From a virus: a DNA stretch of 64,000 nt. Within the stretch, counting starts at the first letter, position 1; every line of letters starts with the position of its first letter. The DNA lies in the IMG/VR virus record IMGVR_UViG_3300011113_000784, positions 1 to 64,000 of that record; one strand, written 5' to 3'. A program made the translations under genes and the position numbers. Under the pieces are notes generated by a model that saw nothing but the letters and a program-made list of their open reading frames with translations, ran no database searches and was not told where the DNA came from. This document shows positions 544 through 58,614 of the stretch, in pieces.

Positions 544-566
544 TTATCAAGTGAGGACACGCTTCT
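544..566 (-). repeat. Solitary degenerate CRISPR repeat handle AGAAGCGTGTCCTCACTTGATAA
   Basis: 17/23 identity to the 3' 23 nt of the array repeat; 3' stem arm weakened. Confidence 0.55.
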
Positions 567-4228: not shown

Positions 4229-5317
4229 ATGTCTGATGAAATCTACAGACCACAAAAATCTGTGAATGCTAACATTAACAATATGCAAAATATTCCAAGA
4301 GAACAACCAATTGAACTTCCAGAAAATCATCCTTTAAGAAATCAGCAATATCAAAACCCTCATATGCAACCACAAATGGAATTAGGTGGATTGCCTCCCA
4401 ATGTTATTACAGGCAACATTCCCCCACAATTTAAAGCTCAAATTACTGGTGATACGAGTTCTGTCCCACCACAAAACAGAACGCCTGTAGATGTCCCCAC
4501 TGCAATGGTGATGATGAATGCCAATCCAGAATTGAATGCGATTCTTAATGCTTTAAAGCAACATAGCACACAGTATGAAGAGGTGTTACTCCCAAGCAAG
4601 GGAAGGTTTTATGACGGAACAGATGGACCAGTAAATGGAATTGTTAATATTCGCCCCATGACCGGCGAGGAAGAGCAAATTTTGGCAACTCCAAGATTTG
4701 TTAAAAAGGGTACTGCCTTAAACATGATTTTTAGCAAATGTATTCGTGAAAATATCAAGCCTGAAAATCTTTTGTCACAAGACAGAACTTTTCTTTTGAT
4801 TTATTTGCGTGGTATTAGTTATGGAACGGACTATGAAGTTCAAGTTCGTTGCCCAGATACTGATAGGCAATTTTCTACAACAGTTGATCTTGATAGCTTG
4901 ATTGTTACAAGATGCCCTGATGATTATGGTCCAAATTCTCTTCAAGGGGTTTTGCCCAAGAGCGAATTGCCATTTACCTATAGACTTGCTAAAGGGAAAG
5001 ATGAGAGCGATTTGCAACAATATAGAGAAACAAGGATGAAGTCATTTAGCGATAACAGCCTAGATGACACATTGATATTCAGAATTGCTCAACTGGTTAA
5101 CAGCGTTAGGAATATCACTGATAAAGAAGAACTTAAAGTTTTGATAAGAAATTTACCTATTCAGGATGTTAACTATATAAGGAACCTGATCAACGAACCA
5201 CCTTTTGGGATGCAGACAAAGGTTAGCATTTTGTCGCCTTATTCCAATGAAGAGTTTGAAATTGATCTGCCTTTGGACAGCGGTTTTTTCTTCCCCCGGA
5301 ACAAGAAGGCGAACTAA
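4229..5317 (+). CDS. Baseplate hub / tail assembly chaperone, T4 gp26-like
   Basis: LPSKG-FY, IRPMTGEEEQIL, DRTFLLIYLRGISYG..Y..CP, C-terminal LPLDSGFF. Confidence 0.75.
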   Translation: MSDEIYRPQKSVNANINNMQNIPREQPIELPENHPLRNQQYQNPHMQPQMELGGLPPNVITGNIPPQFKAQITGDTSSVPPQNRTPVDVPTAMVMMNANPELNAILNALKQHSTQYEEVLLPSKGRFYDGTDGPVNGIVNIRPMTGEEEQILATPRFVKKGTALNMIFSKCIRENIKPENLLSQDRTFLLIYLRGISYGTDYEVQVRCPDTDRQFSTTVDLDSLIVTRCPDDYGPNSLQGVLPKSELPFTYRLAKGKDESDLQQYRETRMKSFSDNSLDDTLIFRIAQLVNSVRNITDKEELKVLIRNLPIQDVNYIRNLINEPPFGMQTKVSILSPYSNEEFEIDLPLDSGFFFPRNKKAN

Positions 5318-5514
5318 GTCCAAGCCTGAAGTTATGGCAAGCATTGATGGATGAGTTTTTCTTTTTCCTCTATCATCTGCATGTCAAAAAACAAGACTTC
5401 ATGCAACTGACAATTGCCGAAAGGAAATATTTAATAGAAAAATTCATTGAGCAAAAGAAAAAAGAAAGTGAAGAACAAGAAAAGGCATTTAGAAACGCAA
5501 GATCTAGGAGATAA
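5284..5514 (+). CDS. -1 frame extension (GT-like / gp51-like) of the chaperone; not in the ORF track
   Basis: Slippery T TTT TTC at 5284-5290; -1 frame open to TAA 5512-5514 (..LWQALMDEFFFFLYHLHVKKQDFMQLTIAERKYLIEKFIEQKKKESEEQEK..). Confidence 0.75.
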   Translation, partial: FFLPPEQEGELSPSLKLWQALMDEFFFFLYHLHVKKQDFMQLTIAERKYLIEKFIEQKKKESEEQEKAFRNARSRR

Positions 5515-5516
5515 GT

Positions 5517-6254
5517 ATGGCGACTAAAGAAAGATATCAAAATCCAGTTCCTAATGACACAGTTGTTTTAAGATTATTTGTTTATAATCAAAACACTTTT
5601 TCTAATGTACAATCAATTCAAAAAGTAGAAATTTACAAGATTCCTGATAACGCTTCAATTAATGATCTCTCCCAAGGAACACTTGTTCAAACAATTGGTT
5701 CTGAAAATGTCAAACAAGACTCAACGGGAAAGTATTATGTTGATCTTGTTGCGGAATATCCTTTATTTACTGTCGGCAAGTATGTTGATGTTTGGTATAT
5801 AACTTTTACAACTGATGAGGGTACAAGCGAAATAATCAATACTTTCAATTTGTACCCAGATCTTTGGTACACGACACCAATTCCTGTTGTTTACGATTTC
5901 AGCTTCGTATTCCGTCCAAATCGTTTCAGGAAGGGATCGAAACAATATATCATTTGCCAAATCACGCCAAATGTTCCCAGAGGCACAGATTTGGGTCGTT
6001 ATTATGAAAACCTAATTATCAATTCCAATGTCATGATAAGCTTGGAAATGAACTGTGGCGATTGTGTTCCAGCTGAACAAGATCTAAGGCTTGTTCTTGA
6101 TCAAGTGCCTACTGACTACAGAGAAAAGAATTACGCCTATTACTTGCTAGATACAACCGATTTGGAACCGGGCATTTACAATGTTTGGTTCACAATGGAA
6201 ATGGGTGAAAACACATTCATCTCAGACCGTATGAACCTTCAAATCTTTACTTAA
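5517..6254 (+). CDS. Hypothetical protein, probably virion beta-rich
   Basis: Two G-Y-x-x-W beta-sandwich-like segments; follows the tail chaperone. Confidence 0.55.
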   Translation: MATKERYQNPVPNDTVVLRLFVYNQNTFSNVQSIQKVEIYKIPDNASINDLSQGTLVQTIGSENVKQDSTGKYYVDLVAEYPLFTVGKYVDVWYITFTTDEGTSEIINTFNLYPDLWYTTPIPVVYDFSFVFRPNRFRKGSKQYIICQITPNVPRGTDLGRYYENLIINSNVMISLEMNCGDCVPAEQDLRLVLDQVPTDYREKNYAYYLLDTTDLEPGIYNVWFTMEMGENTFISDRMNLQIFT

Positions 6255-6289
6255 CAGATTATTAAAAAAAATAAATAATTTGTTTTTGG

Positions 6290-6339
6290 TTGCGTTGTCA
6301 GATAACGCCCTTGACTACGCAATAAAATTTATTTATTGT
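6290..6339 (+). promoter_or_regulatory. Sigma70-like promoter overlapped by an inverted repeat
   Basis: TTGACT(6311)-17 nt-TATTGT(6334); arms TTGCGTTGTCA (6290-6300) / TGACTACGCAA (6312-6322). Confidence 0.55.
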
Positions 6340-6365
6340 GTACTCGGACAAGCAAGGAGGTTGCT

Positions 6366-7769
6366 ATGAATCTTGTCGAAAGATTGAAGAAACATTTTGA
6401 ATGTGAAATGAATGTTCTTCTTGTAGGAGAACACGGGGTTGGAAAAACTTCCATTATCAAACAAGTGTTTGAAGATGAAGGTTTAATTCTAAATGAATCG
6501 TGGTTGTACTTTTCAGGTTCTACACTCGATCCTTGGGTCGATTTTATCGGCATACCCAAAGAAGTCGAATACAATGGTAAAAAGTGCATAGAAATTGTAC
6601 CACCAAAGGCTTTTGCTGATGAAGGTAAGATTCAAGCCATTTTCATCGATGAGTTTAACCGATCACCTAGCAAGATTAGAAACGCTCTACTTGAATTATG
6701 CCAATTTAAATCAATCAATGGCAGAAAATTCCCTAACCTTAAAGTTGTTTGGGCAGCTATCAATCCAGAAGACGAGAACAATACATATGATGTGGAAAGA
6801 CTCGATCCAGCCCACAAGGATCGATTCCATGCTAATCAAATTGTTGTCCCATATGCTTGTGACATGGAATATTTTAAGGGCAAATACGGGGAAGATGTCG
6901 CATCTGCTAGCATTTCTTGGTGGAATGCTCTTCCCGAATTGATTAAAAAGCAAATATCTCCCAGAAGATTAGATTATGCTCTTCATTTCATGAGCAAAGG
7001 CATTCCTTTGGAAGATATTTTGCCAAAAGATAGCAATATCTCAAAGCTAAGACAAGATATCAGCAATGGACCAGTGGATAAGAAATTATCAAAGCTTTTT
7101 GAAACCAAAAACTTCAAAGAAGCAAAATTGTTTCTAAATGTTGAAAATAACTACTTGTCTGCTATCAAAATAATTGATGGTAACAAGAAATATATGGAAT
7201 TCTTTATTCCATTGCTCAAAAAAGAAAAAATATGTTTATTGATATCTGATGATAATATGGCATCATCGGATTTCATTTTGTCGAACAAAGATAACAATAC
7301 TGAATTCAAGTCTGCAATAGAAAGCATATTGACAGCTAGTGCGAATCCAAAAGCTTTGATGAAAATAAGGTCTTATTTCGCTAACACAAGTGCTAGCGAA
7401 GTGGTAAAAAACAAAGATATATCTGTTGATTCTGTTCTAGCACCATTGTCTAATGAAATCTACTTAGAAAGAATTAACAAAGCTGATAAAAAAGATCAAA
7501 TAAAAATTGTTTTAAGCAATTTTCCTGATAATCCCACTAGCGTTGTCAGCGAAAAGACAATGAGTATCATTGCAAATTTCATTATTGAAAAATGGGAAGC
7601 AACTATTAAACAACAAAACTTAGAATTAATCATAAAGATTTGGAATACTTGTTACAAGCAAGCTGATAAAATGTTTGTTGCCAAGAATTTCAGCAACAAA
7701 GAATTATGTCGCAAATGTTTTAATCTTGGGATCATAACGCAAATGGAAGGTATGGCAAATGGATATTAA
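6366..7769 (+). CDS. MoxR-like AAA+ ATPase
   Basis: Walker A GEHGVGKT, Walker B IFIDEFNR, AAINP, LDPAHKDRF; SD AAGGAGG before ATG 6366. Confidence 0.9.
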   Translation: MNLVERLKKHFECEMNVLLVGEHGVGKTSIIKQVFEDEGLILNESWLYFSGSTLDPWVDFIGIPKEVEYNGKKCIEIVPPKAFADEGKIQAIFIDEFNRSPSKIRNALLELCQFKSINGRKFPNLKVVWAAINPEDENNTYDVERLDPAHKDRFHANQIVVPYACDMEYFKGKYGEDVASASISWWNALPELIKKQISPRRLDYALHFMSKGIPLEDILPKDSNISKLRQDISNGPVDKKLSKLFETKNFKEAKLFLNVENNYLSAIKIIDGNKKYMEFFIPLLKKEKICLLISDDNMASSDFILSNKDNNTEFKSAIESILTASANPKALMKIRSYFANTSASEVVKNKDISVDSVLAPLSNEIYLERINKADKKDQIKIVLSNFPDNPTSVVSEKTMSIIANFIIEKWEATIKQQNLELIIKIWNTCYKQADKMFVAKNFSNKELCRKCFNLGIITQMEGMANGY

Positions 7770-9042: not shown

Positions 9043-9575
9043 TCATCATAAAAGAAATCATTGTCAAGTTTGAGTAGCGTTTCTAATGCTACTCCAGTCC
9101 ATTCTTTGTATTTAATTGAATATTCAAACTCATAACCAATTAAATCTTTGGTTAAAAGAAAAGCTAACCAAGGTTTACGATTTCTTTTCCAACACACCAT
9201 TGGCTTTCTACCACATCTTTTGCTATCATCAGTTACTTGTTCCATGAAACTGTCTAGTTCTGAATTTCCCTTAATGAATATGGAATTAATATCAATTCCG
9301 TCATAGCCACCTTTGCTCTCTAAAACAAATTTAAAACCTTTAGGGACAACTAAGTCGCCACTAAAAACTTGAGTGGCTTGTTCTGTCATCTTTTCAACTT
9401 GACCCCAACGATTGCCGCTGCCAATAGAACGGGTAAAAGGCATATTAAATCTATTAGACAATATCTTAGTCAACTCCAATTCAGTTCTATTTCCCTTTTT
9501 CTTTCCATTTACTTTTTTAGGTTTTCTTGGTTGTATATCTTCTATATCAAGACCTGAAAAATCATTAGTACTCAA
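9018..9575 (-). CDS. Holliday junction resolvase, PD-(D/E)XK family
   Basis: KKKGNRTELEL, SGD..ESK. Confidence 0.7.
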   Translation of the reverse strand: MSTNDFSGLDIEDIQPRKPKKVNGKKKGNRTELELTKILSNRFNMPFTRSIGSGNRWGQVEKMTEQATQVFSGDLVVPKGFKFVLESKGGYDGIDINSIFIKGNSELDSFMEQVTDDSKRCGRKPMVCWKRNRKPWLAFLLTKDLIGYEFEYSIKYKEWTGVALETLLKLDNDFFYDDHSKSDNI

Positions 9576-10356
9576 GAATCACCTCTTTATACATTTTAAT
9601 TGAGTGAAACTTTCTTGATATAGATTCATTATCATATGTGAATTCACACAACCTGTATGGATTCACTTTATAAAACATGCACTGATCTGTGATTGAATCA
9701 TAATTTTTATAATAAGATAAAGCATGTAAAAATATTTCCAGAGTAGAACAAAAGAAAATTTGACCAGTAACTTTTGTTAAATCAAAGAAAAATAACGGTC
9801 TGGCGTGATTTCTATACAAGTATAATTTTATATTGTTATCATCTAGTTCGCACATTGATATGGCAAATTGACTCTTTGGAATCAAACCAGTTAATTTACT
9901 AAATGACTTAATGGTTGTTTCAGGATTATTTTCAATAAATCTAAGAATTACTTCTGAATCACAAGTAGACTCTGTTGGAAACATTTCTATCAGGGATTCA
10001 TATTCTGCCCTATCGATTATTCCATTGTGTATTAATATTTTTTTATTATCTTTGCTAATAAAAGGATGGTTATTGAGATTGTTCTCTGGCTCTCCACAAT
10101 TGGCAGTAGCTTGCCTTGCATGAAGCAAACAAACTTTTAAATTAATATTTTTAAGGTTTTGGAAAAAATCAGTTTTAACAAAATCAGAAGATGGAATAGG
10201 TTCTTTTTTGAAATAAGTTTTATTGTTTTCATCAACGCCATACATGCCGGATGCGTGTACACCACGGTACTCAAGAAGCCTAAATATTCTTTTCGACAAA
10301 TTAAATGTGAATTTATTATTATTAGACTTGCCTATAAAACCAGCAATACCACAAAT
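9565..10356 (-). CDS. Class II glutamine amidotransferase (Ntn) protein, ATT start
   Basis: ATT-TGT-GGT-ATT-GCT-GGT (xCGIAG), RGVHASG, HARQAT, NNHPF, HNGII, CDSEV. Confidence 0.85.
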   Translation of the reverse strand: MCGIAGFIGKSNNNKFTFNLSKRIFRLLEYRGVHASGMYGVDENNKTYFKKEPIPSSDFVKTDFFQNLKNINLKVCLLHARQATANCGEPENNLNNHPFISKDNKKILIHNGIIDRAEYESLIEMFPTESTCDSEVILRFIENNPETTIKSFSKLTGLIPKSQFAISMCELDDNNIKLYLYRNHARPLFFFDLTKVTGQIFFCSTLEIFLHALSYYKNYDSITDQCMFYKVNPYRLCEFTYDNESISRKFHSIKMYKEVILEY

Positions 10357-10370
10357 AATGCACCTTCCTT

Positions 10371-11000
10371 TTATAACATTTTATAACGATTGTTTTGAAT
10401 TTTATTATTTGGTTTTTTTCTTTCTTCAATCAATTTGTTTTTTATTGATTTAGTAGATGACACATCTGATAAATTATAAGTAAATTCTCTTACATTAAGA
10501 AATGTATTAATGTCATTGAACATTTTTATCGGACTTGATATTAATTTATCATTTTCAACAATCATAAAGTTTTCGACTTTGTCTTTAAGTTTCATTGCAC
10601 TAGTGTAACATGCATCATATGATTTTGATTTTTCATCATAAGATGAATTTCTAAATTTTGGATTCACATATGAATTGTGTGCTGACCAACTCTTTATTAT
10701 GCTTTCTTTGCTTTTAAGGCAATAAACATAATAAGCTTTTGGCATATTTTCAATTAGCCAATCTGTGTGATTGTTTTCAACCCAAGGTCTTTTCAATATG
10801 ACTCTTTTTTCTTTTTGAGTTAAGGTAGCTATTTTTTCTGCATTGGCATTTAATAAAAAATCATTTTCTAAAATGAAACCCATTGATCCGTTATTGAATA
10901 AAATGAAATCAGGATGTTGTCTCAAAATATGCGCCACAATAGTGGTGCCAGAATGAGCCATTCCGCATATGATAATTAATTTATTGTTTCCTTCTATCAT
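10371..11000 (-). CDS. Sulfotransferase-family (P-loop) protein
   Basis: IICGMAHSGTT..LRQHP PAPS-binding loop. Confidence 0.7.
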   Translation of the reverse strand: MIEGNNKLIIICGMAHSGTTIVAHILRQHPDFILFNNGSMGFILENDFLLNANAEKIATLTQKEKRVILKRPWVENNHTDWLIENMPKAYYVYCLKSKESIIKSWSAHNSYVNPKFRNSSYDEKSKSYDACYTSAMKLKDKVENFMIVENDKLISSPIKMFNDINTFLNVREFTYNLSDVSSTKSIKNKLIEERKKPNNKIQNNRYKML

Positions 11001-11479
11001 TTTTGTGGATACTGACTTATTGGAGCAGCCTGAGACATGTCAAATCCACTTGCTTGAGGTGTCTCTGGAGCAAGATCTTGTGTTGCCACATCTTTTGGTT
11101 TTTCTGTCTCAGGTGGCTTTTCTGTTATCTGGAAAGCGTTGACAGGAACACCCATTTTAGTAATAACTTTTTGCAAAGTATCAATTGTGCTTTTTAAAAC
11201 TTCTTCAATATTATCATTCTCATCAATTGACTTGGCTAATGCCACAGCACACTTTTGCAATGATTTTAAAAACTTTCTATTTTCATTGCCCCAGTGTCCT
11301 TGAAGAATACCTCTGGCTTTGTTGACAATGATTTGTCCGTATCGAACCAAATTTCTTGTTCCAATCTTATTCACTTCATCAGCTAGTTCTTGTGATGAAT
11401 TAAGAATGTCACCAATTTCTTTGGCTAAATAAACTTTGTTTTCGTTCAAAACATATGTTCTAAAATTGAAATCTGTCAT
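10997..11479 (-). CDS. Hypothetical protein, possible internal head protein
   Basis: N-terminus MTDFNFRTYVLNE. Confidence 0.6.
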   Translation of the reverse strand: MTDFNFRTYVLNENKVYLAKEIGDILNSSQELADEVNKIGTRNLVRYGQIIVNKARGILQGHWGNENRKFLKSLQKCAVALAKSIDENDNIEEVLKSTIDTLQKVITKMGVPVNAFQITEKPPETEKPKDVATQDLAPETPQASGFDMSQAAPISQYPQK

Positions 11480-11518
11480 ATTTCTATTTATTAACAAAGT
11501 ATCAAATGTTGTTTTTTA

Positions 11519-12379
11519 TTAGATCATTTTTATTGGCAAATTTGCATAATGTTCTTCCAATCCCGGTATTATTTTCCTCATAAAATAATTATTCTTCAAA
11601 ATATCTTTAAAATATTTGGAATTATAAACAGCCGATGGTATTCCTTCTGGTGAAGCTGACATTAAATGTATGTTATTGAATCGTTTAGCTAAACCATCTT
11701 GTTGAAGAATTAGCAAGCCAGAAGTGCCATTGTTACGAACCGTAATGTTATAAAAGATGTCCATAAATCTTGCTTTATCTCTTCTTCTGAAATTTCTTAA
11801 CATGGTTTCTTCTTGAATGCTGCACCTTTGATCACAATGTGGATAAACATTTTTAATATAATTTATTTTATCGTATTTACCATTCATTATGTCATTGTAT
11901 TCATCATCAATAAATTGTGTATATTTTTCAGTCGCATCTTTGGTTGAATCAAAATAAATTATGCCACCATTGACACCTAATCCATCAGCATTCAAAATAC
12001 CAACTTTGTCCCAATTAAAATTTGAAAATTTATTAAGTAGAAATACATCTGCATCTAAATATATTCCTTTATCTTTGTTTTGTTTGGCATGAAGATAACA
12101 ATTAATATGTCTTGAAAACATTTTCCAATTCATATTTGGTTGATTGCATTTTTCATAAATTGGTTTTTGTGAAACAATTTCAAAGTTTAATTGTTTAGAA
12201 GATTCATAAACCAAAGCGGGAGCATCATCATTTTCATATGTGATGACAACTATTCTATTGTTTGGATAAAAATGACGCAACACTATGATGGAAGTTAAAA
12301 AGCAACCCCAAAATTTATGAAAACCTTTAGACGGAGAATTTGTGTAAATTGCATAATAAAACACTATTTCTTCTTGCAT
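11519..12379 (-). CDS. GT-A fold glycosyltransferase-like protein
   Basis: IYLDADVF (DxD), VNGGIIYF. Confidence 0.65.
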   Translation of the reverse strand: MQEEIVFYYAIYTNSPSKGFHKFWGCFLTSIIVLRHFYPNNRIVVITYENDDAPALVYESSKQLNFEIVSQKPIYEKCNQPNMNWKMFSRHINCYLHAKQNKDKGIYLDADVFLLNKFSNFNWDKVGILNADGLGVNGGIIYFDSTKDATEKYTQFIDDEYNDIMNGKYDKINYIKNVYPHCDQRCSIQEETMLRNFRRRDKARFMDIFYNITVRNNGTSGLLILQQDGLAKRFNNIHLMSASPEGIPSAVYNSKYFKDILKNNYFMRKIIPGLEEHYANLPIKMI

Positions 12380-12428
12380 GGATTAATTTAGTATTTTTAT
12401 ACTATTTTGATTTAGTAGCAGGGTCATC

Positions 12429-12608
12429 GTGTCATCTGGGGACACATTTCTGAGTCATTGCTAGATTGCGGCTGCTTTTTCTGGCGACTCCAACATGATC
12501 GTGTCAACTGGGGACACATTTCTGAGTCATTGCTAGACTAATCTGTCCAGACTCACGACCAACATACGACTGTGTCAGCTGGGGACACAATTCTGAGTCA
12601 TTGCTAGA
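12429..12608 (-). CRISPR. CRISPR mini-array: 3 x 37-nt repeats, 2 spacers, type V-I (Cas12i)-like; no cas genes adjacent
   Basis: Repeats at 12429-12465, 12501-12537, 12572-12608 = TCTAGCAATGACTCAGAA(A/T)TGTGTCCCCAG(A/T/C)TGACAC on minus; unique spacers of 35 and 34 nt; 3' GTGTC/GACAC stem. Confidence 0.92.
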
Positions 12609-12636
12609 AGACCGATAAGGACATACAAAGTCAAAA

Positions 12637-15087
12637 TTATCCACATTTGCTCCATCCACAAGATTTACACAAAACACAACCATCATTACGCTCAACCTGA
12701 TTGCCTTGACATGAAGGACATTCTTCACCATGCACCTTCGTTCCATCCTTGATGTACTTCTTCAAGGTTCGTGCCAACACCTTACTAAGACTAACAAGGT
12801 CACCCTTAGTTTTTTCTAGTTGGTGAACAACAAAACTAATGTCAGCGCCATGTCGTAAAGATGTGCTGACCATGCGACACAAGGCATCGCCATTTTCATG
12901 ATTATGAATGTTAGAAAGATTAAATTCTTCTTCCGCAACTCTGAAAACATATTTGCCACGATTAAGCTTTTTAAGAGTTCCCTTGTGTTCTTTTGACTTA
13001 ATTAACGGTTCGCCATTTTCTAAATTCAAGCCAGCAAATACTTCGTATGGATCGCCGCCAAGCAAGCCAACAACAACATAATATGGCTCACCCTTGACTA
13101 CAGAGAAATGAACCTCTGCATTAATGTCAGCAGGACGCTTGGGCGAGTCGTTCTTGATAATCTTAGCATCCTTCTTTTCTTCCTTCTTGGGCTTTTCAAC
13201 CAACACACCAGTACGACAGTTCTTGCGATATACGGTCATACCTTTGCAACCATACTTCCACGCTGCTTCATAAATCTTAGCGACTTGCTCTTCAGTAACA
13301 TCTTCTGGAAGGTTTACAGTCTTGGAAATAGCATGGTCAATATACTTTTGAGCTTCTGCTTGCAGTTCTACAGCAGCAACCCAGTCGATATCTTCTGCAC
13401 AACAACCAAACCAAGGTGATTTTTTGAGATCTTTTTCACCTGTAACATCCATCCACATTTTGACTTTGGGATGGTAGACTTCAAATTCCTGCCAATGATC
13501 ACCATTTTGATCAACGAAGTCTGTACGGGCATTCTTATCAGTTGGATTAATCTTTTTTCTGCGAGTGTACGGAAAAAGCATGAAAAGTGGTTCAACACCT
13601 GATGTAGTCTGAGTCATGATAGACACAGAGCCAGTAGGAGCAATGGTAAGATTGGCAATATTGCGTCTTCCATGCTTCATGATATCGTCATACAACTGAG
13701 GATCAATTTCTTTGAGCATCAAAAGGAATTCAGAATCTTTTTCCTTTTCCCTATCCCAAACAGGGAATGCACCAAGAACCTTTGCCATCTCAACACTAGA
13801 GCGGAATGAGCCAAGACACAAAGCTTTGCAAATCTTACCTGTCAACTTAACGCTTTCTTTGCTGCCATAAGCTAAACCAAGAGCAGCAATAGTATCACCA
13901 AGAGCAGTCAAACCAGTACCAGTTCTTCTGCCATTTTCGCATTTCTTGTGTACTTTTTCCCACAATTCCAATTCGTTTGCCTTAATAGTTTTAGATTCTG
14001 GATCTGATTTTATTTTCTTGATAATGGCTTCAACTTTTTCAAGCTCAAGATCAATCATGTCGTCCATTAGACGCTGACAAATCTTGGCATGTTGTTCAAA
14101 CAACGGAAAATCAAAGTGTGCATTCTTCTTGAAAGGATTGACAACATATGAAAATAGATTCAAAACCATTAAGCGGCAGGAGTCATAGCTGCATAATGGC
14201 AATTCGCTGCAAGGATTTGTTGATATGGTTTTATATCCTTCATCAGCATAACAATCAACAGCGTTGTACTTGGTAATACGATCCCAGAAAAGGAGTCCGG
14301 GTTCAGCACGAAGCCATGCATTATGAATAATCTTCTTCCACAATTCTCTTGCATCAACATAGACATCGTTATCGCTTGGTGGGGCATCGACAGGAAAACG
14401 CAAACGGAATTGCTCACCCTTTTCAACGGCTTGTAAAAATTCATCACTCAACAAAACAGATACATTTGCTCCAGTAACTTTTGTATCATCGTTCTTGATG
14501 GTGATAAACTTTTCAATATCTTTGTGAGCAACATGGATAGAAAGCATGAGTGCGCCACGACGACCAGCCTGACCAACTTCACGAATGGTGTTGCTATAGC
14601 GTTCCATCCAAGATGGAATGCCTGTGCTAGTACGAGCAGCGTTCTTTACGGATGCTCCAGATGGACGAAGGGTGGAAATATCAACGCCAATGCCACCTCG
14701 TCTCTTTGAAATTTGAGCAAGCTCTTCATCGGCTTTGAGAATACCACCATAGCTATCGGCTGGACTTTCAACGACATAGCAATTAGACAAAGAGATAACT
14801 TGATGGTTATTACCGATGCCAAACATCGGACTTCCTTGGGGCACAATATATTTAAACTTATGCAATAATGCATAAATTTGATCTTCAGTTAAAGGATCTC
14901 TATGATTAATTTTTTCAATTCTTGCAAATTCCCTTGCAATTCTACGATGCATTTGATCAGGAGTTTCTTCAAGAAGATTGCCATTGTTATCTTTTAAGGC
15001 ATACTTATCAAGAAAAACTTTGGCAGCAAGCTCATCTCCTTCAAAATAAGAAACACACTTTTCAAAAGCATCGCTGTACTGGTACAT
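12637..15087 (-). CDS. nrdJ: Class II (B12-dependent) ribonucleotide reductase
   Basis: SLSNCYV, TNPCSELPL, IAPTGSVS, KGMTVYR, C-terminal TSCPD-like domain and CPSC..CKSCGWSKC; no beta subunit nearby. Confidence 0.93.
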   Translation of the reverse strand: MYQYSDAFEKCVSYFEGDELAAKVFLDKYALKDNNGNLLEETPDQMHRRIAREFARIEKINHRDPLTEDQIYALLHKFKYIVPQGSPMFGIGNNHQVISLSNCYVVESPADSYGGILKADEELAQISKRRGGIGVDISTLRPSGASVKNAARTSTGIPSWMERYSNTIREVGQAGRRGALMLSIHVAHKDIEKFITIKNDDTKVTGANVSVLLSDEFLQAVEKGEQFRLRFPVDAPPSDNDVYVDARELWKKIIHNAWLRAEPGLLFWDRITKYNAVDCYADEGYKTISTNPCSELPLCSYDSCRLMVLNLFSYVVNPFKKNAHFDFPLFEQHAKICQRLMDDMIDLELEKVEAIIKKIKSDPESKTIKANELELWEKVHKKCENGRRTGTGLTALGDTIAALGLAYGSKESVKLTGKICKALCLGSFRSSVEMAKVLGAFPVWDREKEKDSEFLLMLKEIDPQLYDDIMKHGRRNIANLTIAPTGSVSIMTQTTSGVEPLFMLFPYTRRKKINPTDKNARTDFVDQNGDHWQEFEVYHPKVKMWMDVTGEKDLKKSPWFGCCAEDIDWVAAVELQAEAQKYIDHAISKTVNLPEDVTEEQVAKIYEAAWKYGCKGMTVYRKNCRTGVLVEKPKKEEKKDAKIIKNDSPKRPADINAEVHFSVVKGEPYYVVVGLLGGDPYEVFAGLNLENGEPLIKSKEHKGTLKKLNRGKYVFRVAEEEFNLSNIHNHENGDALCRMVSTSLRHGADISFVVHQLEKTKGDLVSLSKVLARTLKKYIKDGTKVHGEECPSCQGNQVERNDGCVLCKSCGWSKCG

Positions 15088-21983: not shown

Positions 21984-22006
21984 GTGTCAGCTGGGGACAC
22001 ATTTAC
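21984..22006 (-). repeat. Solitary CRISPR repeat handle between convergent genes
   Basis: GTAAATGTGTCCCCAGCTGACAC, 21/23 to the array consensus. Confidence 0.88.
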
Positions 22007-43619: not shown

Positions 43620-43642
43620 AGTAATGTGTGCCTAGATCATAC
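43620..43642 (+). repeat. Solitary CRISPR repeat handle AGTAATGTGTGCCTAGATCATAC
   Basis: 18/23 to the repeat at 12429; compensatory C-G to G-C pair plus a G-U wobble keep the 5-bp stem. Confidence 0.65.
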
Positions 43643-50395: not shown

Positions 50396-51589
50396 ATGCC
50401 TCGCCGTATTGATTCTGACCATAAAGACTTCAGAGATGTAGTCAGTGGCAGAATTAGAAAAAATCTAAAAAAGTTTATCAAGAGTGGCGAAATATTTCGC
50501 CACCGTGGTAAAAATGGCAAAGTATCAATAAAGATTCCTGCAATTGATATCCCTCACTTTCTTCACGGCAAGAACCCTAATGGGGTAGGTCGTGGAGAAG
50601 GACAAGAAGGAGATACTGTTGGCAAGGACAAGGGGCAAGGTCAAGGACAAGGAAACGGCGCTGGTCAGGATGAAAGCGAAGGCGTAATTGTTCAGCTAGA
50701 TATGGAGGACATCCTTCACTTCATGAAGGATGAATTGATGCTTCCTAATCTCAAACCTAAGCAACAAGCCAACCTTGAAGATGTAAAAATTAAGTATAAT
50801 AATATCTCTCTAGTTGGTCCAGAATCACTTAGGCATACTCGTCGCACAATGTTAACTGCGATGAAGCGCCTTTGCGGTACTGGCGAAATCAATAATTTAT
50901 ATGAAATTCCCGGCATTAAAGATAAAGTCAAAATGATCAATCCGATTAATTCGGATAAGAGATATCGTCAATATAAAGAGATTAGATTTCCTTCCAGCAA
51001 TGCTGTTGTTATTTTTGCTCGTGATGCCAGTGGATCAATGGATGATCGTAAAGTGGCAGTTGTTTCTGATATGGCTTATTGGATTGATGTTTATATTAGG
51101 AATTTCTATGAACGAGTTGAGAGGCTTTATGTTTGGCACGATGTAGCTGCCCATGAAGTTGATGCAAAAGATTTTTATCGAATCAGAAATGGTGGTGGCA
51201 CTACTTGTTCTACTGCTTTAGAATTAGTTGCCAAACAATTTGAAAACAGATTTCCTCCTAAAAATTGGAATATTTATTTCTTTTATTTCACTGATGGTGA
51301 AAATTACGATAATGACAACGATGTTTTTACGACTTTGTTAAAGAAAGAGTTTCCTCAAAATATTGTTAATCTTGTTTCTATAACTCAAATTGGTGCTTAT
51401 TCTTACAAAAACAGTGTTGCTGAGGTAGTTGAAAAAGAAATTGTTGAAGGTGGCTTAGATGATAATGTAATTGTTACAGAAATTCCATTTGATGCAATTA
51501 ACAATGAAGAAAAAAGAAATGAAGCTATATTAAAAGCAATAAAAGATATATTGGGCAACCCGTTTAAAAGCGCCAATGAGGTTTTCTAA
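50396..51589 (+). CDS. yeaH: YeaH/YhbH (DUF444) VWA-like protein
   Basis: LPNLKPK, SNAVVIFARDASGSM, GGT..S, NIYFFYFTDGEN. Confidence 0.9.
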   Translation: MPRRIDSDHKDFRDVVSGRIRKNLKKFIKSGEIFRHRGKNGKVSIKIPAIDIPHFLHGKNPNGVGRGEGQEGDTVGKDKGQGQGQGNGAGQDESEGVIVQLDMEDILHFMKDELMLPNLKPKQQANLEDVKIKYNNISLVGPESLRHTRRTMLTAMKRLCGTGEINNLYEIPGIKDKVKMINPINSDKRYRQYKEIRFPSSNAVVIFARDASGSMDDRKVAVVSDMAYWIDVYIRNFYERVERLYVWHDVAAHEVDAKDFYRIRNGGGTTCSTALELVAKQFENRFPPKNWNIYFFYFTDGENYDNDNDVFTTLLKKEFPQNIVNLVSITQIGAYSYKNSVAEVVEKEIVEGGLDDNVIVTEIPFDAINNEEKRNEAILKAIKDILGNPFKSANEVF

Positions 51590-53184
51590 TGTCAGACAAA
51601 TTCTTATTTGGTTCGCCTGTTCTTTTCGGATCTGCTACTACTCCCGGCGTACCTATTCCTGAAGAACTCAACAAACATATTCCAACTATTTTTCAAGCTT
51701 GTAAAGATTTTGGACTAGATTTTTATCCAACAATTGTCCAGATGCTTTCTCATGACGAAATGAGTGAAGTTGCAAGTTATGGTGGATTTGCATCGAGATA
51801 TCCACATTGGAAGTTTGGTGCTGAATATGAAGAGATGCAAAGAGGTTATCTTCACGGAAATCATAGAATATATGAAATGGTGGTAAATTGTAATCCGGCT
51901 TATCTATATTGCCTGAATTCGAATACATTGCTTGACAATATTACAGTAATTGCTCATGCGCTTGGTCATGTTCATTTCTTTAAGAATAATATTCATTTTT
52001 CTAGAACAAATACAAATGCACATAACGAACTGGCAAATAACGGTTCTAATGTAAGAAAGTATATGTCTCGTTATGGTAGAGAAACTGTAACAGAATTTAT
52101 GGATCATTTGTTCCGAATTGAAACTCTTGTTGATCCAATGAATATCTGGAAAGAAAGAAAAGCTAAAGAAGTTGTCATTAGGGACAAAAAAGACTATGTA
52201 TTTCCTAAAAGGATTAAGACAAATCAAGATTATATGGAAAACTGGATTAATACTCCAGAGTTTATAGAAGCTCAAAATAAGAAAATTGAAGAACAAGAGA
52301 TCATGAGAGATCTCAATGCATTCGCTTCTCCTGAATCAGATATATTTGGATATATCAAAGACAATGCGCCATTCAAACCTTGGCAGCGTGATATTGCTGA
52401 GATTTTGTACAATGAAGCTATTTATTTTAGTCCACAAGGCAAAACCAAGGTAACTAATGAAGGTTTTGCTAGTTATTGCGATTATCATCTTATCGCTAAA
52501 CAAGGATACGCTTCTTTAGGACAAGATAATGAGGATGGGGGTATTGTTGAGTACTCTATTCATAAAGCTGGTGTATTGGGCGGCAAATATAGCATGAATC
52601 CATACAAGCTTGGATTTATGTTATTAATGGATATCGAAGAAAGATGGAACAAGGGTAGATTTGGATCAGATTATGCCAATTGCACTAATCCAATTGAAAG
52701 GGAAAATTGGGATCTTAATCTTGGACTTGGTAAGGAAAAAGTTTTTGAGGTTTGCAAGAACTACGATGATTATCAATTCATAAATGAATTTTTTACCAAG
52801 GAGTTCTGTGAAAAGAATGAGTTCTTTGAGTACAAGCGTTATCCGACTGGTGAAATAAAGTTGGAAAGCAGAGATTACAAAAAGATCAAAAGAGAGTTGT
52901 TGCGTAAGCATATTAATCGTGGTTTGCCAAATATTAAGCTTGTTGAGCCTAGATTTAAAGGCAACATGTTTTTCATGGAGCATAAGTGGCAAGGTGTAGA
53001 ACTTTATAAACCTTATGCTTACGAAGTGATGAAGTCTATTTGTTATCTTGTGAGACAACCTGTTGTATTGCAAACCAAGAATCATAATGGGGATGAAGCA
53101 TTTTATTATTGCCAAGATTTGAACGGGGATTATGCTGCGGCTGATCCTAAATCTTTAACAAGAGATCAATTGAATAAACTATGA
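51589..53184 (+). CDS. spoVR: SpoVR/YcgB family protein
   Basis: RYPHWKFG, IYEMVVN-NP, AHALGHVHFFKNN, TKVTNEGFASY, NPYKLG. Confidence 0.93.
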   Translation: MSDKFLFGSPVLFGSATTPGVPIPEELNKHIPTIFQACKDFGLDFYPTIVQMLSHDEMSEVASYGGFASRYPHWKFGAEYEEMQRGYLHGNHRIYEMVVNCNPAYLYCLNSNTLLDNITVIAHALGHVHFFKNNIHFSRTNTNAHNELANNGSNVRKYMSRYGRETVTEFMDHLFRIETLVDPMNIWKERKAKEVVIRDKKDYVFPKRIKTNQDYMENWINTPEFIEAQNKKIEEQEIMRDLNAFASPESDIFGYIKDNAPFKPWQRDIAEILYNEAIYFSPQGKTKVTNEGFASYCDYHLIAKQGYASLGQDNEDGGIVEYSIHKAGVLGGKYSMNPYKLGFMLLMDIEERWNKGRFGSDYANCTNPIERENWDLNLGLGKEKVFEVCKNYDDYQFINEFFTKEFCEKNEFFEYKRYPTGEIKLESRDYKKIKRELLRKHINRGLPNIKLVEPRFKGNMFFMEHKWQGVELYKPYAYEVMKSICYLVRQPVVLQTKNHNGDEAFYYCQDLNGDYAAADPKSLTRDQLNKL

Positions 53185-54415: not shown

Positions 54416-55800
54416 ATGGAAGAATTGAACAAGGAAGGAGGGCAGCACAAGCAGATGAAGATTGTTGGTTATGAACATCTTCATCTGCACTAGGTCAAAC
54501 AGAATACTCTGTCCTCGACGGTTTTGGTAGCGTTCAGGATTATATTGATAGGTGGTCACCGCATGGCGATTATCTCTGTGTAACAGATCATGGATTAATG
54601 GGTGCTATACCAAGCTTAATCACAAAAACAGAACAAGCAGAAAAGAAATTAAAAAGTTTGTACGGGTGCGAATTGTATGTGAACCCAATTCACAATGAAC
54701 CAACTGAGACTGAAGAAGCTAGAGACAAATTTATAAAAAACTTGTCACCACAAGAATTTGAAGATTTCAAAGTCTCTAGCCACATATTAGCAATTGCCGT
54801 AACCAATAAAGGTTATGAAAACCTAACAAAATTGTGTAGTCTTGGCTGGAGCCAAGGATTTTATCGTAAGCCTAGAGTCAATCACAAAGTTCTTCAACAA
54901 TATAAAGAAGGCATTGTTTTCACTTCTTGTTGTTGTGCTTCTGAAGCAGCAAGAGCTTTGCGTGTACATGGCAAAGAAGTTGCTGAAGCGACTATTCTTA
55001 AATACAAGCAAATGTTTGGAGATAACTTCTATCTTGAAATGATGCTTCTCGATTTTGAGTATCAACATGAGTATGATCAATTTTTAGTTGAGATGCACAT
55101 CAAACATCAAATTCCAATGATCATTACCAATGATGTTCATTACGCATATCAAGAGGATAGCAAGTATCAAACATTAATGATGTTGGTTAATACCAAAAGG
55201 ACATTGGCTGAGATTGAGAAGTTAAAAGCTGAGAATGCTGATGTGTTTGAATTGCAAGATAGAAATTTGTGGATGAAAACAGAGGAAGAATTGAATCAAA
55301 AGTGGGCTGAAAAGTATTCCGATGTAATTCCTTTAGAAATTTATGAACAAGCTAAAATGAATACTGTTAAGATATGCAGAATGGCATCTGGCTTAAAATT
55401 AGATAGAAGTGTAAAACTACCAAGGCTCAATGATGATGAAGGCGTTTTAAAAGATTTGGTTTTAAGAGGAATGACATATAGGGGAATATCAAAATCTAAT
55501 CGTATTTACACAAAGCGTATTGCAGAAGAATTAGATCTTATTTTTAGGAAACAGTTTGCTAGTTACTTTCTCATAGTTAAGAGTTTTACAGATGAAGCTA
55601 GAAGAAAGTGTCAAGAGATTACTGGGTTGGATGGCGTTTATGCGGTTGGACCCGGTAGAGGGTCTGGTGCTGGTTCTCTTGTGTTATATCTTCTTGGCGT
55701 TACTGATGTAGACCCAATAAAGCATGAACTTCTGTTCTCACGATTCTTATCGGAGAACAGAGGTTCACAAGCAGTATTAAAATTTAGTCAAGGTGACTGA
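54416..55800 (+). CDS. dnaE: DNA polymerase III alpha N-terminal part (PHP + partial palm), interrupted by 8 nt after HLHLH
   Basis: EHLHLH-TAG at 54491, then TEYSVLDG, VTDHG, GCELY, GFYRKPR, TNDVHY, GPGRGSGAGSLV-YLLGVTDVDPI..LLFSRFL in the frame of ORF 54598. Confidence 0.88.
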
Positions 55801-56077
55801 CTTCATAGTCATCAAAGTTACTTCCTTTAGAGAAGTCAACATTTGGTGTTCCAAGATCGCCAAAAGGTTTGTCAGTATTATAACCTTTTGCACGATATGC
55901 TTGGCTCTTTTTGCCTTGTAGTGGGAAGCTATAATGCTTTCCTTTAACGCCAGTATCTTCAGGGGCTTCTGGTTGGGGGAAAGCATAAGATTTCATGATA
56001 TCTTGAAGTTTTTTCTGAGAATCGCTAATTTCTAGATCTTTTTTATATTGCTCTAAAGTCTTAATTTTCTTTGCCAT
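55784..56077 (-). CDS. Hypothetical protein inserted between the dnaE halves
   Basis: SD GAGG; 97 aa. Confidence 0.65.
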   Translation of the reverse strand: MAKKIKTLEQYKKDLEISDSQKKLQDIMKSYAFPQPEAPEDTGVKGKHYSFPLQGKKSQAYRAKGYNTDKPFGDLGTPNVDFSKGSNFDDYEVSHLD

Positions 56078-56142
56078 GATTCACCTCTACTTTATTTAGA
56101 TTTTCACATTGATTTTTACCGCTAAATGCTTAAAATCATGGT

Positions 56143-58614
56143 ATGAATACCATATCTGTCGAAGATTTTAATAAAATTATCAACAATCAATTCAAGAAAT
56201 TTCCTTTTCATGATGATCCACGATATCAATTCAGGCTTAGATATGAGCTTTTAGAAATAGAAACACAAAATTGTTGTGATTATTTTATAGATTTGGTCAA
56301 ACAAAAGAAAAAATTTCTTAATGAAAACAATTTACTTGTCCCAGTGTTACTGGGAATTTGCAATGAATTCAATATTGATGAAATGCCCAAAACTAAAACA
56401 AATGAATTCCCCGATGTTGATATCGATTTCTTGGCAGATGTTCGTGATTATCTAAAAAACGAATATGCTCCCAATCAATATAAAGCTGAAAATACATGCT
56501 CTATTGGTACTTACGGCAGATATGCTTTAAAGAGCGCCATGATTGATATGGCAAGAATCTATGGATATGACCGACAAGAAGTTTTAAATATTACAACAAA
56601 TTTGAGAATGAAAGACGAAGATGGAGATGAATTGACATATGAAGAAGCTTTAGAAATGTATCCTGAGTTGAAATCTTATATGGACAAGTATCCAGAATTA
56701 GCATTAGCTGTTCAAAAGCTTATTCACAGAGTACGCAATACCGGCAAACATGCTGGCGGTGTAATTGTTGCCAAGGACGAGATTAATAAGTTTGTTCCAT
56801 TGATGAAAACCACAGGTGGTGACCAGCTTGTATCACAGTTTGTAGAAGGTTTGGCTACACAAGAATTAGGACCAATAGGTCTGGTAAAATTCGACTTGCT
56901 TGTTGTGTCTGCGTTAGAGCAGACGGGTCACGCAGTAAAAATGATAAAGGATAGGCATAATATCAAATTAATTTCAGGTGACAATCACGATTGGGACAAC
57001 ACAGATTATTTGAATGACCCCAAGGCTATTGCGAATGCCAACGAAGCAGATTTGATTGGCATATTCCAATATGATAGCAATGGGATTAGAGAAGTTGTAA
57101 AAGCTTCTGGTATTGATAGTTTTGATGACTTGGTTGCGATTGTCAGTTTGTATCGTCCCGGTCCATTGAATGCAGAAATGGATCAAGTGTTCATCAGAAG
57201 AAAAACAGGACAAGAAGAATATACAATCAATCCCGTGCTTGAACCTGTTCTTAAATCAACTTATGGAATTATTATCTACCAAGAACAAGTAATGAGGATT
57301 CTGAATGTTGTTGGCAAAATCCCTCTGAAAGATTGCGAAACAATCAGAAAGGCTATTTCTAAAAAGAAGATATCAAGTTTCATCAAGTATAAAGAACAAT
57401 TCATTGAAAACGGTGTTAATGTTCTTGGAATTTCCAGAGAAGAAGTCGCTGATATATTTCAGAATATTGAATTCTTCTCAGCTTATGGTTTTAACTTAAG
57501 TCATGCCACCGCTTATACTTACATCAGCAGCCGACAATTATATTTGAAAACTTATTATCCATTAGAATTCTTTACTGCTTTGTTGATGTTGGAAGGTAGT
57601 GAAGAGAAGAAGCGCATTTATATTACAGATGCTCAAAATCATGGAATTGAAGTTCGGGCAGTTGACCTAAACACAAGCAAAGCCAATTTCTCGATACAAG
57701 ATAATGCCATTTACATTGGTTTTGGCAATATTAAAGGTATCGGAATGGATACTGCCAATAAGATTGTAGCCTTGCAACCGTTTAAAGACATAGATGATTT
57801 TCTTCGTCGGTTTGGCACAGACTCTAGTGTTTTGAAAGCACTGATTCCGTTGAAGGTCTTTGGAGAAGACACAAAGAGAGCTTACAACTATTGGCAAGCT
57901 TTTATGGCTAAGAACAAAAAGGTTGTTGACAAAAATAAGAGATCTAATAAGTCTTATCTCGATCTGAAGAAGACAGTGTTATATCTGTTGCCTGAAAAGT
58001 ATAGGAATTTGGAATTGTCTGAAGAATTGTTTTCAATTCTTAAATCAATTAATGATTCTGCTGATGTGAACAAGCTGCATAAGAAATGGGTGAGGATGAA
58101 TTCTAAAGAAGAAGCAAAGATTGAAATTTCTTATGAAGACTTTGATGATGATGACATTGTCATCGAAGATAAAGAGTTGCTGCTTGAATTAAATGATATT
58201 TGTGTGGCTGAGAGAAAGTATTATGGGTTTCAGTTTACTTGCAGACTAAGAATGCTAAAGATGTACAGTGAGAACTGTACATTTGACCGTGTTATTAATT
58301 CTCATGCCTTGGGTGCGACTAAGCACATGGTTCAAATTGAAATATTGGATGTCAATAAAAGATATTCAAAATCTGGTAAGCCCTATTGCCAGTTAGTTGC
58401 TATGGATAGTAATTTCAGAATTGAGAGGATTAATGTGTGGGAAGATGATTACGCTATATTCAAACATTTGCTTGAGGTTAACAAATGTTTGTCAATGCAG
58501 GTCAAACCACCTTCTAATGGATTTTCTACTTATAGCCTAAATTCTCCTCCTAAAAACAGGAGATATTTACTTCCATCATCAGAGATGGATTTCAGAATTG
58601 TTTTAATGGACTAG
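56143..58614 (+). CDS. dnaE: DNA polymerase III alpha catalytic part
   Basis: PDVDIDF, GKHAGGV, GLVKFDLL, GIFQ, LYRPGP, TYGIIIYQEQVM, YGFNLSHATAY, IKGIG, OB-like end. Confidence 0.93.
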   Translation: MNTISVEDFNKIINNQFKKFPFHDDPRYQFRLRYELLEIETQNCCDYFIDLVKQKKKFLNENNLLVPVLLGICNEFNIDEMPKTKTNEFPDVDIDFLADVRDYLKNEYAPNQYKAENTCSIGTYGRYALKSAMIDMARIYGYDRQEVLNITTNLRMKDEDGDELTYEEALEMYPELKSYMDKYPELALAVQKLIHRVRNTGKHAGGVIVAKDEINKFVPLMKTTGGDQLVSQFVEGLATQELGPIGLVKFDLLVVSALEQTGHAVKMIKDRHNIKLISGDNHDWDNTDYLNDPKAIANANEADLIGIFQYDSNGIREVVKASGIDSFDDLVAIVSLYRPGPLNAEMDQVFIRRKTGQEEYTINPVLEPVLKSTYGIIIYQEQVMRILNVVGKIPLKDCETIRKAISKKKISSFIKYKEQFIENGVNVLGISREEVADIFQNIEFFSAYGFNLSHATAYTYISSRQLYLKTYYPLEFFTALLMLEGSEEKKRIYITDAQNHGIEVRAVDLNTSKANFSIQDNAIYIGFGNIKGIGMDTANKIVALQPFKDIDDFLRRFGTDSSVLKALIPLKVFGEDTKRAYNYWQAFMAKNKKVVDKNKRSNKSYLDLKKTVLYLLPEKYRNLELSEELFSILKSINDSADVNKLHKKWVRMNSKEEAKIEISYEDFDDDDIVIEDKELLLELNDICVAERKYYGFQFTCRLRMLKMYSENCTFDRVINSHALGATKHMVQIEILDVNKRYSKSGKPYCQLVAMDSNFRIERINVWEDDYAIFKHLLEVNKCLSMQVKPPSNGFSTYSLNSPPKNRRYLLPSSEMDFRIVLMD

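Follow-up and report, generated by a model that had tools for sequence, protein, structure and literature searches.

Three 37-nt repeats found directly behind a ribonucleotide reductase gene of a huge freshwater phage constitute a genuine type V-I (Cas12i) CRISPR array, whose guide-RNA handle is shared with the engineered editing enzyme xCas12i. We favour, with a probability of roughly 55%, the reading that this is a truncated and still usable guide array, which would be transcribed by read-through and supply guides to an xCas12i-like nuclease with its gene in the three quarters of the genome that the sequence does not cover.

The array lies in a stretch of 64,000 nucleotides (the window), which covers the initial 64 kb of an IMG/VR record of 110,967 bases (G000) rated 23% complete. 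Taken together, this length and completeness suggest a genome of several hundred kb, and the source is a fragment of a huge freshwater phage from a clade of widespread freshwater phages with genomes of ~450 kb. The 111-kb record has a GC content of 0.34 and codes for a DnaE-type polymerase, PrkA, a UvsX-like recombinase, helicases and long tail-fibre-like proteins; the DnaE-type polymerase (window 54416-58614) occupies at least two ORFs, 54598-55800 and 56143-58614. Twenty public runs, belonging to 12 studies and with no RNA run listed among them, contain the stretch; most are metagenomes of rivers, fresh water, reservoirs, sediment and drinking water, and the others come from soil and a few further sources. 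A 1,563-nt contig from a freshwater run of 2024 spans positions 11800-12971 without gaps and with 13 differences, none of which falls in the array. Since the array is unchanged and ungapped in this contig, its form with three repeats represents a stable allele rather than an accident of assembly. Three further runs yielded no contig across the array, which speaks neither for nor against this.

Among IMG/VR contigs, one other carries the repeat: IMGVR_UViG_3300016667_001074, a sister phage (G001, with loci L007 and L028). The features of the region, read 5′ to 3′ along the minus strand and compared where indicated with this sister phage or with xCas12i, are as follows.

12637..15087, minus strand: nrdJ-like class II (B12-type) ribonucleotide reductase, 816 aa, upstream of the array and on the same strand (Pfam)
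12639-12637, minus strand: nrdJ stop codon
12609..12636, minus strand: 28-nt junction from the nrdJ stop to the first repeat (alignment with L007)
12634-12629, minus strand: TTGACT kept in the junction, equivalent to the -35 box in the promoter of the sister array; neither -10 box nor leader remains
12572..12608, minus strand: repeat 1, nrdJ-proximal and most divergent, with AGAATT for AGAAAT and C in the loop
12538..12571, minus strand: spacer A, 34 nt, GC 0.47, corresponding to the last spacer of the sister array with 2 mismatches
12501..12537, minus strand: repeat 2, with T in the loop; its 3′ 23 nt are identical to the xCas12i crRNA scaffold
12466..12500, minus strand: spacer B, 35 nt, GC 0.51, present in this phage only
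12429..12465, minus strand: repeat 3, terminal, with A in the loop; matching the terminal repeat of the sister array at 37/37 positions
12380..12428, minus strand: trailer from the terminal repeat to the next gene, identical in the sister phage
11519..12379, minus strand: 286-aa ORF downstream of the array, resembling a GT-A fold glycosyltransferase and starting 49 nt past the last repeat

All neighbouring genes lie on the minus strand, and the 816-aa ORF matches the Pfam families Ribonuc_red_lgC (E 8.7e-87), Ribonuc_red_lgN and TSCPD. A first-pass annotation, made from the letters of the window, had placed three 37-nt repeats 28 nt past the nrdJ stop on the same strand, and these coordinates were confirmed: the repeats start 72 and 71 nt apart, and a 30-nt repeat core gave three matches at ≤3 mismatches, compared with none in 100 shuffles. 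The two spacers read exactly as that annotation had written them. They are, as it had stated, GC-richer than their surroundings (0.47 and 0.51 versus 0.34 for the phage), and its failure to see another copy of either in the window extends to the whole 111-kb record, where spacers A and B have no second copy. On the minus strand each repeat ends at its 3′ side in AGAAAT (or its variant), a 5-bp stem, GTGTC/GACAC, and a 7-nt loop. Because this hairpin stands at the 3′ end of the repeat, the crRNA sense falls on the minus strand, which also carries nrdJ. The differences between the repeats are also those first described, namely one loop position (A, T or C), which directly precedes TGACAC, and one position in AGAAAT, which reads AGAATT in repeat 1. 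Folding of single repeats was no better than that of shuffled sequences, a 5-bp stem being too small for a single-repeat thermodynamic shuffle test, and the handle hairpin was the minimum-energy fold in repeat 3 only. An Rfam search matched no family, and no promoter-like or terminator-like site was found in the window between nrdJ and the array. Behind repeat 3, the first 30-36 nt of the trailer would give a self-derived pseudo-guide.

The assignment to type V-I rests first on the handle. The first-pass annotation had noted a close likeness to the direct repeats of characterised Cas12i nucleases, and comparison of the sequences bears this out. The crRNA scaffold of xCas12i is AGAAATGTGTCCCCAGTTGACAC (PMC10305737, supplementary Table 1), and the reverse complement of positions 12501-12523 is likewise AGAAATGTGTCCCCAGTTGACAC, an identity of 23/23; repeats 1 and 3 differ from the scaffold at two and one positions, respectively, with the stem kept. 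The handle architecture, the regular repeat-spacer period and the unique spacers are all those of a type V-I array, and comparison with the sister phage adds a further property of such arrays, spacers that vary between related genomes while the repeats stay constant. Two other type V-I properties, a cas12i gene in the locus and a leader with a promoter, are absent. The verified cas12i genes of two related phages (G002 and G005, see below) adjoin arrays with the same handle architecture. The Cas12i family needs no tracrRNA-type partner. Its members are described as proteins of 1,033-1,093 aa that use a 5′-TTN PAM and process their own pre-crRNA (PMC10305737, citing Yan et al. 2019). The exact repeat pattern had no match in JGI metagenome contigs and, in a strict search, none in 185,579 species-representative prokaryote genomes; a full-text search of the literature for the handle sequence returned unrelated primers only, and the supplement of PMC12390750 contained nothing of the kind.

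It could be argued that these are tandem repeats of another sort, arisen by chance or serving regulation between genes, given that there are three copies only, that single repeats fold no better than shuffles and that Rfam holds no matching family. Against the 0/100 shuffles, the 23/23 identity to a working scaffold and the existence of an 11-repeat version with variable spacers, we regard this as barely credible, and a non-CRISPR tandem repeat was in effect ruled out on these three grounds.

The sister phage also allows the history of the array to be reconstructed. Its gene order is that of the window (nrdJ, array, 286-aa ORF), its flanking DNA is 91-93% identical, and its array, at the same site, comprises 11 repeats and 10 different spacers. 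One spacer only is shared: the last spacer of the sister array is spacer A with 2/34 mismatches, a divergence close to the neutral rate of the flanks, and spacer B is absent there. Upstream of its array the sister has a strong promoter-like site (TTGACT-16-TATAAT, with TG before the -10 box; 11/12 matches), and a leader of ~190 nt precedes the first repeat. The window follows the sister through TTGACT and a few further bases, continues with 11 unmatched bases, which may be the tail of a lost spacer, and then enters the repeat. Most simply, we infer, the window array would be a deletion remnant that has lost the -10 box together with the leader and the units next to it.

The position of the array immediately behind nrdJ therefore looks like the outcome of this putative deletion and not like a designed arrangement. 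The first-pass annotation had described an orphan array joined to the 3′ end of nrdJ; its orphan status holds within the 111 kb, whereas the junction, set beside the leader of the sister, looks like the result of a deletion. Its remark that the array has neither leader nor cas gene is upheld, in that no cas12i or cas1 was found in the 111 kb and only the -35 hexamer of the sister promoter remains. As the leader is lost and nothing resembling a terminator follows nrdJ, the one apparent route to transcription is read-through from that gene.

In the sister array (L007 5372-5402 and 5286-5305) one repeat is without ~10 nt, including AGAAAT, and two spacers measure 19 and 24 nt, which shows apparent internal decay of the larger array as well. 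Spacers of 19-28 nt also occur in the arrays of G002 and of the viral contig L009.

Loss of the promoter, two changes in repeat 1, and a broken repeat and short spacers in the sister are compatible with decay as well as with function. The array could thus be an inert relic, a formerly working type V-I array that has lost its leader, its promoter and most of its units, has no cognate Cas12i and is decaying. The deletion of the leader and -10 box relative to L007, the lack of cas12i in the 111 kb, the two changes in repeat 1, the sister repeat without its AGAAAT part, the sister spacers of 19 and 24 nt, and the drift of the shared spacer at about the rate of the flanks are all as such a relic would have them. 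We nevertheless consider it an unlikely reading, since the 5-bp stem and the length of the loop are intact in each of the three handles despite 7-9% divergence of the flanks, and since seven handle copies stand outside the array where ~0.3 would be expected; the three-repeat allele, unchanged in the independent 2024 sample while its flanks carry 13 differences, points weakly in the same direction.

To place the arrival of the array, we examined relatives of nrdJ at 50-98% identity, which are present on 10 IMG/VR contigs. Apart from the sister, none of these shows either the repeat handle or the 286-aa ORF behind nrdJ, the latter being absent from that position in L029-L037; in L029 (nrdJ 90% identical, the closest relative without the array) and in L031, nrdJ is followed within ~100 nt by a homologue of the ORF at 10997-11497. 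As the more distant relatives have neither the array nor the 286-aa ORF, both were inserted in an ancestor that the window phage shares with its sister. The product of this ORF matched no Pfam or PHROG family. Its Atlas model matches GT8/Nucleotid_trans clusters with TM scores of 0.63-0.68, and the protein has a DxD-like LDAD stretch. A hidden Cas protein was rejected for this ORF on account of the glycosyltransferase-like GT-A fold, and the model predicts an ordinary accessory enzyme. A cluster of accessory enzymes adjoins the array (9565-12379, minus strand), comprising the glycosyltransferase-like gene at 11519-12379, a sulfotransferase-like gene at 10371-11000 and a glutamine amidotransferase-like gene at 9565-10299. 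The first two of these are absent from the close relative L029, and the cluster may be a variable modification island.

We then turned to the effector. Neither the 111-kb record nor the sister contig yielded a cas12i gene with two Cas12i queries, in a search that hit the related phages G002 and G003 at E 1e-145 as a positive control; as the record is ~23% complete, this absence applies to the 111 kb and not to the whole genome. The genome-wide search for cas12i that the first-pass annotation had proposed thus came back empty for ~23% of the genome. The 111 kb likewise contained no ORF of Cas12i size and no cas1. Four ORFs, of 882, 818, 2063 and 2154 aa, were rejected as effectors because none matched either Cas12i query; the first of these codes for a lectin-type protein and the second for a tail-fibre protein.

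A generic two-copy Cas12i-handle pattern was used to find the arrays of related phages. Cas12i is carried by the phage records IMGVR_UViG_3300028569_002417, IMGVR_UViG_3300028571_002266 and IMGVR_UViG_3300032241_003323, two of which are nearly the same. In G002 (IMGVR_UViG_3300028569_002417, 225 kb) and G003 (168 kb), a 1080-aa Cas12i, which matches the PDB entries of Cas12i2 (E 1e-101) and Cas12i1 (E 1e-65) over its full length, is followed by a 13-repeat array whose repeat has the same architecture with a CCGTC/GACGG stem. G002 is collinear with the 111-kb record (69/161 ORFs matched in order), and its cas12i-array island (191.8-196.1 kb) sits between homologues of 51589-53184 and 54598-55800; the window has no such island between these two ORFs. 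G005 (IMGVR_UViG_3300032241_003323), whose PrkA is 62% identical, encodes a 1069-aa Cas12i with a 16-repeat array, the repeat having the GTGTC stem and a different loop (CTTCGTT). This island, at ~42.9-47.4 kb and upstream of PrkA, occupies another site than that of G002. Both sites where relatives keep cas12i are empty in the phage studied here. In the islands of the relatives the array directly follows cas12i, and the window array stands alone at a third genomic site. Cas12i islands thus appear to be common and mobile, and exchangeable within the clade.

The Cas12i proteins of these relatives are 26-34% identical to the xCas12i-like protein, which was reached by a HMMER search of 1.84 billion representatives. 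This search gave ~45 Cas12i family clusters, of which the one with the most xCas12i-like N-terminus was followed, leading to P0062 and P0065. The proteins of this cluster are 1080 aa long and 92-99.9% identical to one another; P0062 and P0065 have the N-terminal motifs obtained by translating the published coding sequence of xCas12i and match Cas12i2 over the full length (E 7e-95). The cluster comes from Logan, JGI and ENA contigs of up to 26 kb, and searches of IMG/VR, JGI metagenome contigs, species genomes, GenBank phages and plasmids recovered neither P0062 nor P0065. No close relative of xCas12i was found in species-representative prokaryote genomes. The absence of the repeat from these same genomes, together with the amino-acid make-up of P0062 and P0065, which fits an AT-rich genome, would weakly favour a phage over a cellular origin of the xCas12i-like enzyme.

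On the favoured reading, the remnant left by the deletion would be transcribed by read-through from nrdJ, and an xCas12i-like nuclease of ~1080 aa, most likely encoded in the remaining ~77% of the genome, would bind each 3′ hairpin and cut the precursor upstream of AGAAAU. The two spacers would then be used against DNA with a 5′-TTN motif in other mobile elements or the host. Because the window array does not directly follow cas12i as the arrays of the relatives do, a cognate effector in this phage is an assumption of this reading. The targets are placed in other mobile elements or the host because a GC content of ~50%, compared with 34% for the phage, points away from the phage itself; on composition, the spacers probably came from DNA unlike the phage's own, and the ~50% GC says only that. 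The anatomy of the locus is likewise compatible with the mechanism put forward in the first-pass annotation, in which guides would arise by read-through and direct an effector encoded elsewhere against competing elements or host genes.

Protospacers, which the first-pass annotation had suggested looking for, did not emerge from GenBank phages, PLSDB plasmids, IMG/VR (exact 22-mers) or related phages. Spacers A and B gave chance matches only against GenBank phages (E ≥ 1); the 5′ 22 nt of each spacer, searched exactly in IMG/VR, returned the sister array only; and the whole sister array matched no phage or plasmid in GenBank and PLSDB. Nothing beyond chance was obtained when the 12 spacers of the window and sister were compared with G000, G002 and 31 nrdJ-relative loci, or when these 12 and a further 40 from related Cas12i phages were compared with G000, G002 and 35 loci. 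The best ungapped spacer matches covered 21-23 of 34-36 positions, the same as in shuffled controls.

L009 (IMGVR_UViG_3300034096_001644) is a 6.9-kb viral contig that carries a 29-repeat array of the Cas12i2-like repeat type at 4868-6899 and no Cas12i-sized ORF. Its spacer number 12 agrees at 20/38 nt with a motif that recurs within the tail-fibre region of G002 (110.8-114.8 kb), and this match was treated as a repeat motif and not as a target.

An array that is orphan in its surroundings might also provide guides for a Cas12i belonging to the host or to a co-infecting Cas12i phage, with exclusion of competitors as the result. There are precedents by analogy: viral mini-arrays with one or two spacers use host Cas proteins against related viruses (PMC6858448), and Al-Shayeb et al. 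suggested that phages without effectors may use those of their host (PMC7162821). The relatives described above, moreover, bring three different Cas12i types into the same habitats. We judge such borrowing to be quite unlikely, as the repeat and any close xCas12i relative are absent from species-representative prokaryote genomes, no spacer matches G000, G002 or the nrdJ-relative loci, and the record is 23% of a genome that may encode an effector of its own in the rest.

Comparison with known systems places the locus closest to that of xCas12i/hfCas12Max (PMC10305737), with which it shares the 3′ 23 nt of the repeat as scaffold, a 37-nt repeat with the hairpin at its 3′ end, spacers of 34-35 nt and the existence of natural 1080-aa xCas12i-like proteins in metagenomes; it differs from that system in having no leader and no adjoining cas12i (none in 111 kb). 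Type V-I systems have been reported from huge phages, where most have no Cas1/2/4 and the arrays are compact, and phage arrays without recognisable effector genes were also noted (Al-Shayeb et al. 2020, PMC7162821). The huge-phage type V-I loci found here belong to the same clade as the window array and have in common with it compact arrays, the lack of adaptation genes and a handle of AGAAAT or AAAAAT, a 5-bp stem and a 7-nt loop; unlike it, they have cas12i directly upstream and other repeat sequences. In the mini-arrays of archaeal viruses, the repeats match type I arrays of the host and the spacers match related viruses (Medvedeva et al. 2019, PMC6858448), and a role in conflicts between viruses has been proposed for them. 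Our array resembles these in having one or two spacers and no cas genes nearby; unlike in their case, the repeat was not detected in any cellular genome and its spacers match none of the related phages compared.

Phage-borne type V-I arrays, orphan viral mini-arrays and solitary repeats are thus already known, and the locus is a new example and not a new system; the finding extends known biology and overturns none of it. What is particular here is the exact identity of the handle to that of an engineered editing enzyme, its standing apart from cas12i, and a history that can be reconstructed as an insertion and a later truncation. The guide-RNA handle of xCas12i/hfCas12Max is thereby tied to a natural setting, a clade of huge freshwater phages, and the locus illustrates how phage arrays change, through insertion at a new site, separation from the nuclease gene and a putative promoter-removing deletion. 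Should the complete genome prove to be without cas12i, the locus would represent, in a phage of bacteria, what the mini-arrays are in archaeal viruses, and would lend itself to testing whether guides or decoys act in trans among phages that carry Cas12i.

A decoy in the sense of an RNA anti-CRISPR would work differently, its repeat transcripts soaking up the Cas12i of the host or of a rival phage, with the spacers irrelevant. The model for this is provided by Racrs, viral mimics of CRISPR repeats that are active against type V-A and consist of one repeat each, in many cases just downstream of a predicted promoter (Camara-Wilpert et al. 2023, PMC10651486). Common to Racrs and the phage studied here are the viral mimicry of CRISPR repeats without cas genes and the presence of solitary handle copies elsewhere in the genome, for example at 21984-22006. 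Unlike the solitary repeats of Racrs, the locus is a repeat-spacer-repeat array of three full 37-nt repeats with foreign spacers of normal length and no promoter, and its sister counterpart is a regular 10-spacer array with a leader; a full repeat plus spacer would, by analogy, load Cas12i with a working guide and not form an aberrant complex. A decoy function consequently seems improbable to us.

Equally doubtful is a more elaborate proposal, in which the array was deliberately detached from cas12i to act in trans in conflicts between giant phages, where it would arm, redirect or saturate the nuclease of a rival. It builds on the clade carrying at least three mutually incompatible Cas12i/repeat types and counts the solitary handles as part of the scheme.

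As to these solitary handles themselves, copies of the 23-nt handle outside the array at ≤6 mismatches numbered seven, compared with ~0.3 expected in shuffles, and these scattered copies suggest that the handle still matters to this phage. The best, at 21984-22006 of the window (minus strand), has 3 mismatches and an intact stem. Three weaker copies lie in the window, at 544-566 (minus strand), 43620-43642 (plus strand) and 56652-56674 (plus strand), and three more lie beyond it in G000, at 67655-67677, 79912-79934 and 101397-101419. These six have 5-6 mismatches each, and some of them keep the stem by compensatory or G-U changes, as in ATGTC...GACAT at 67655.
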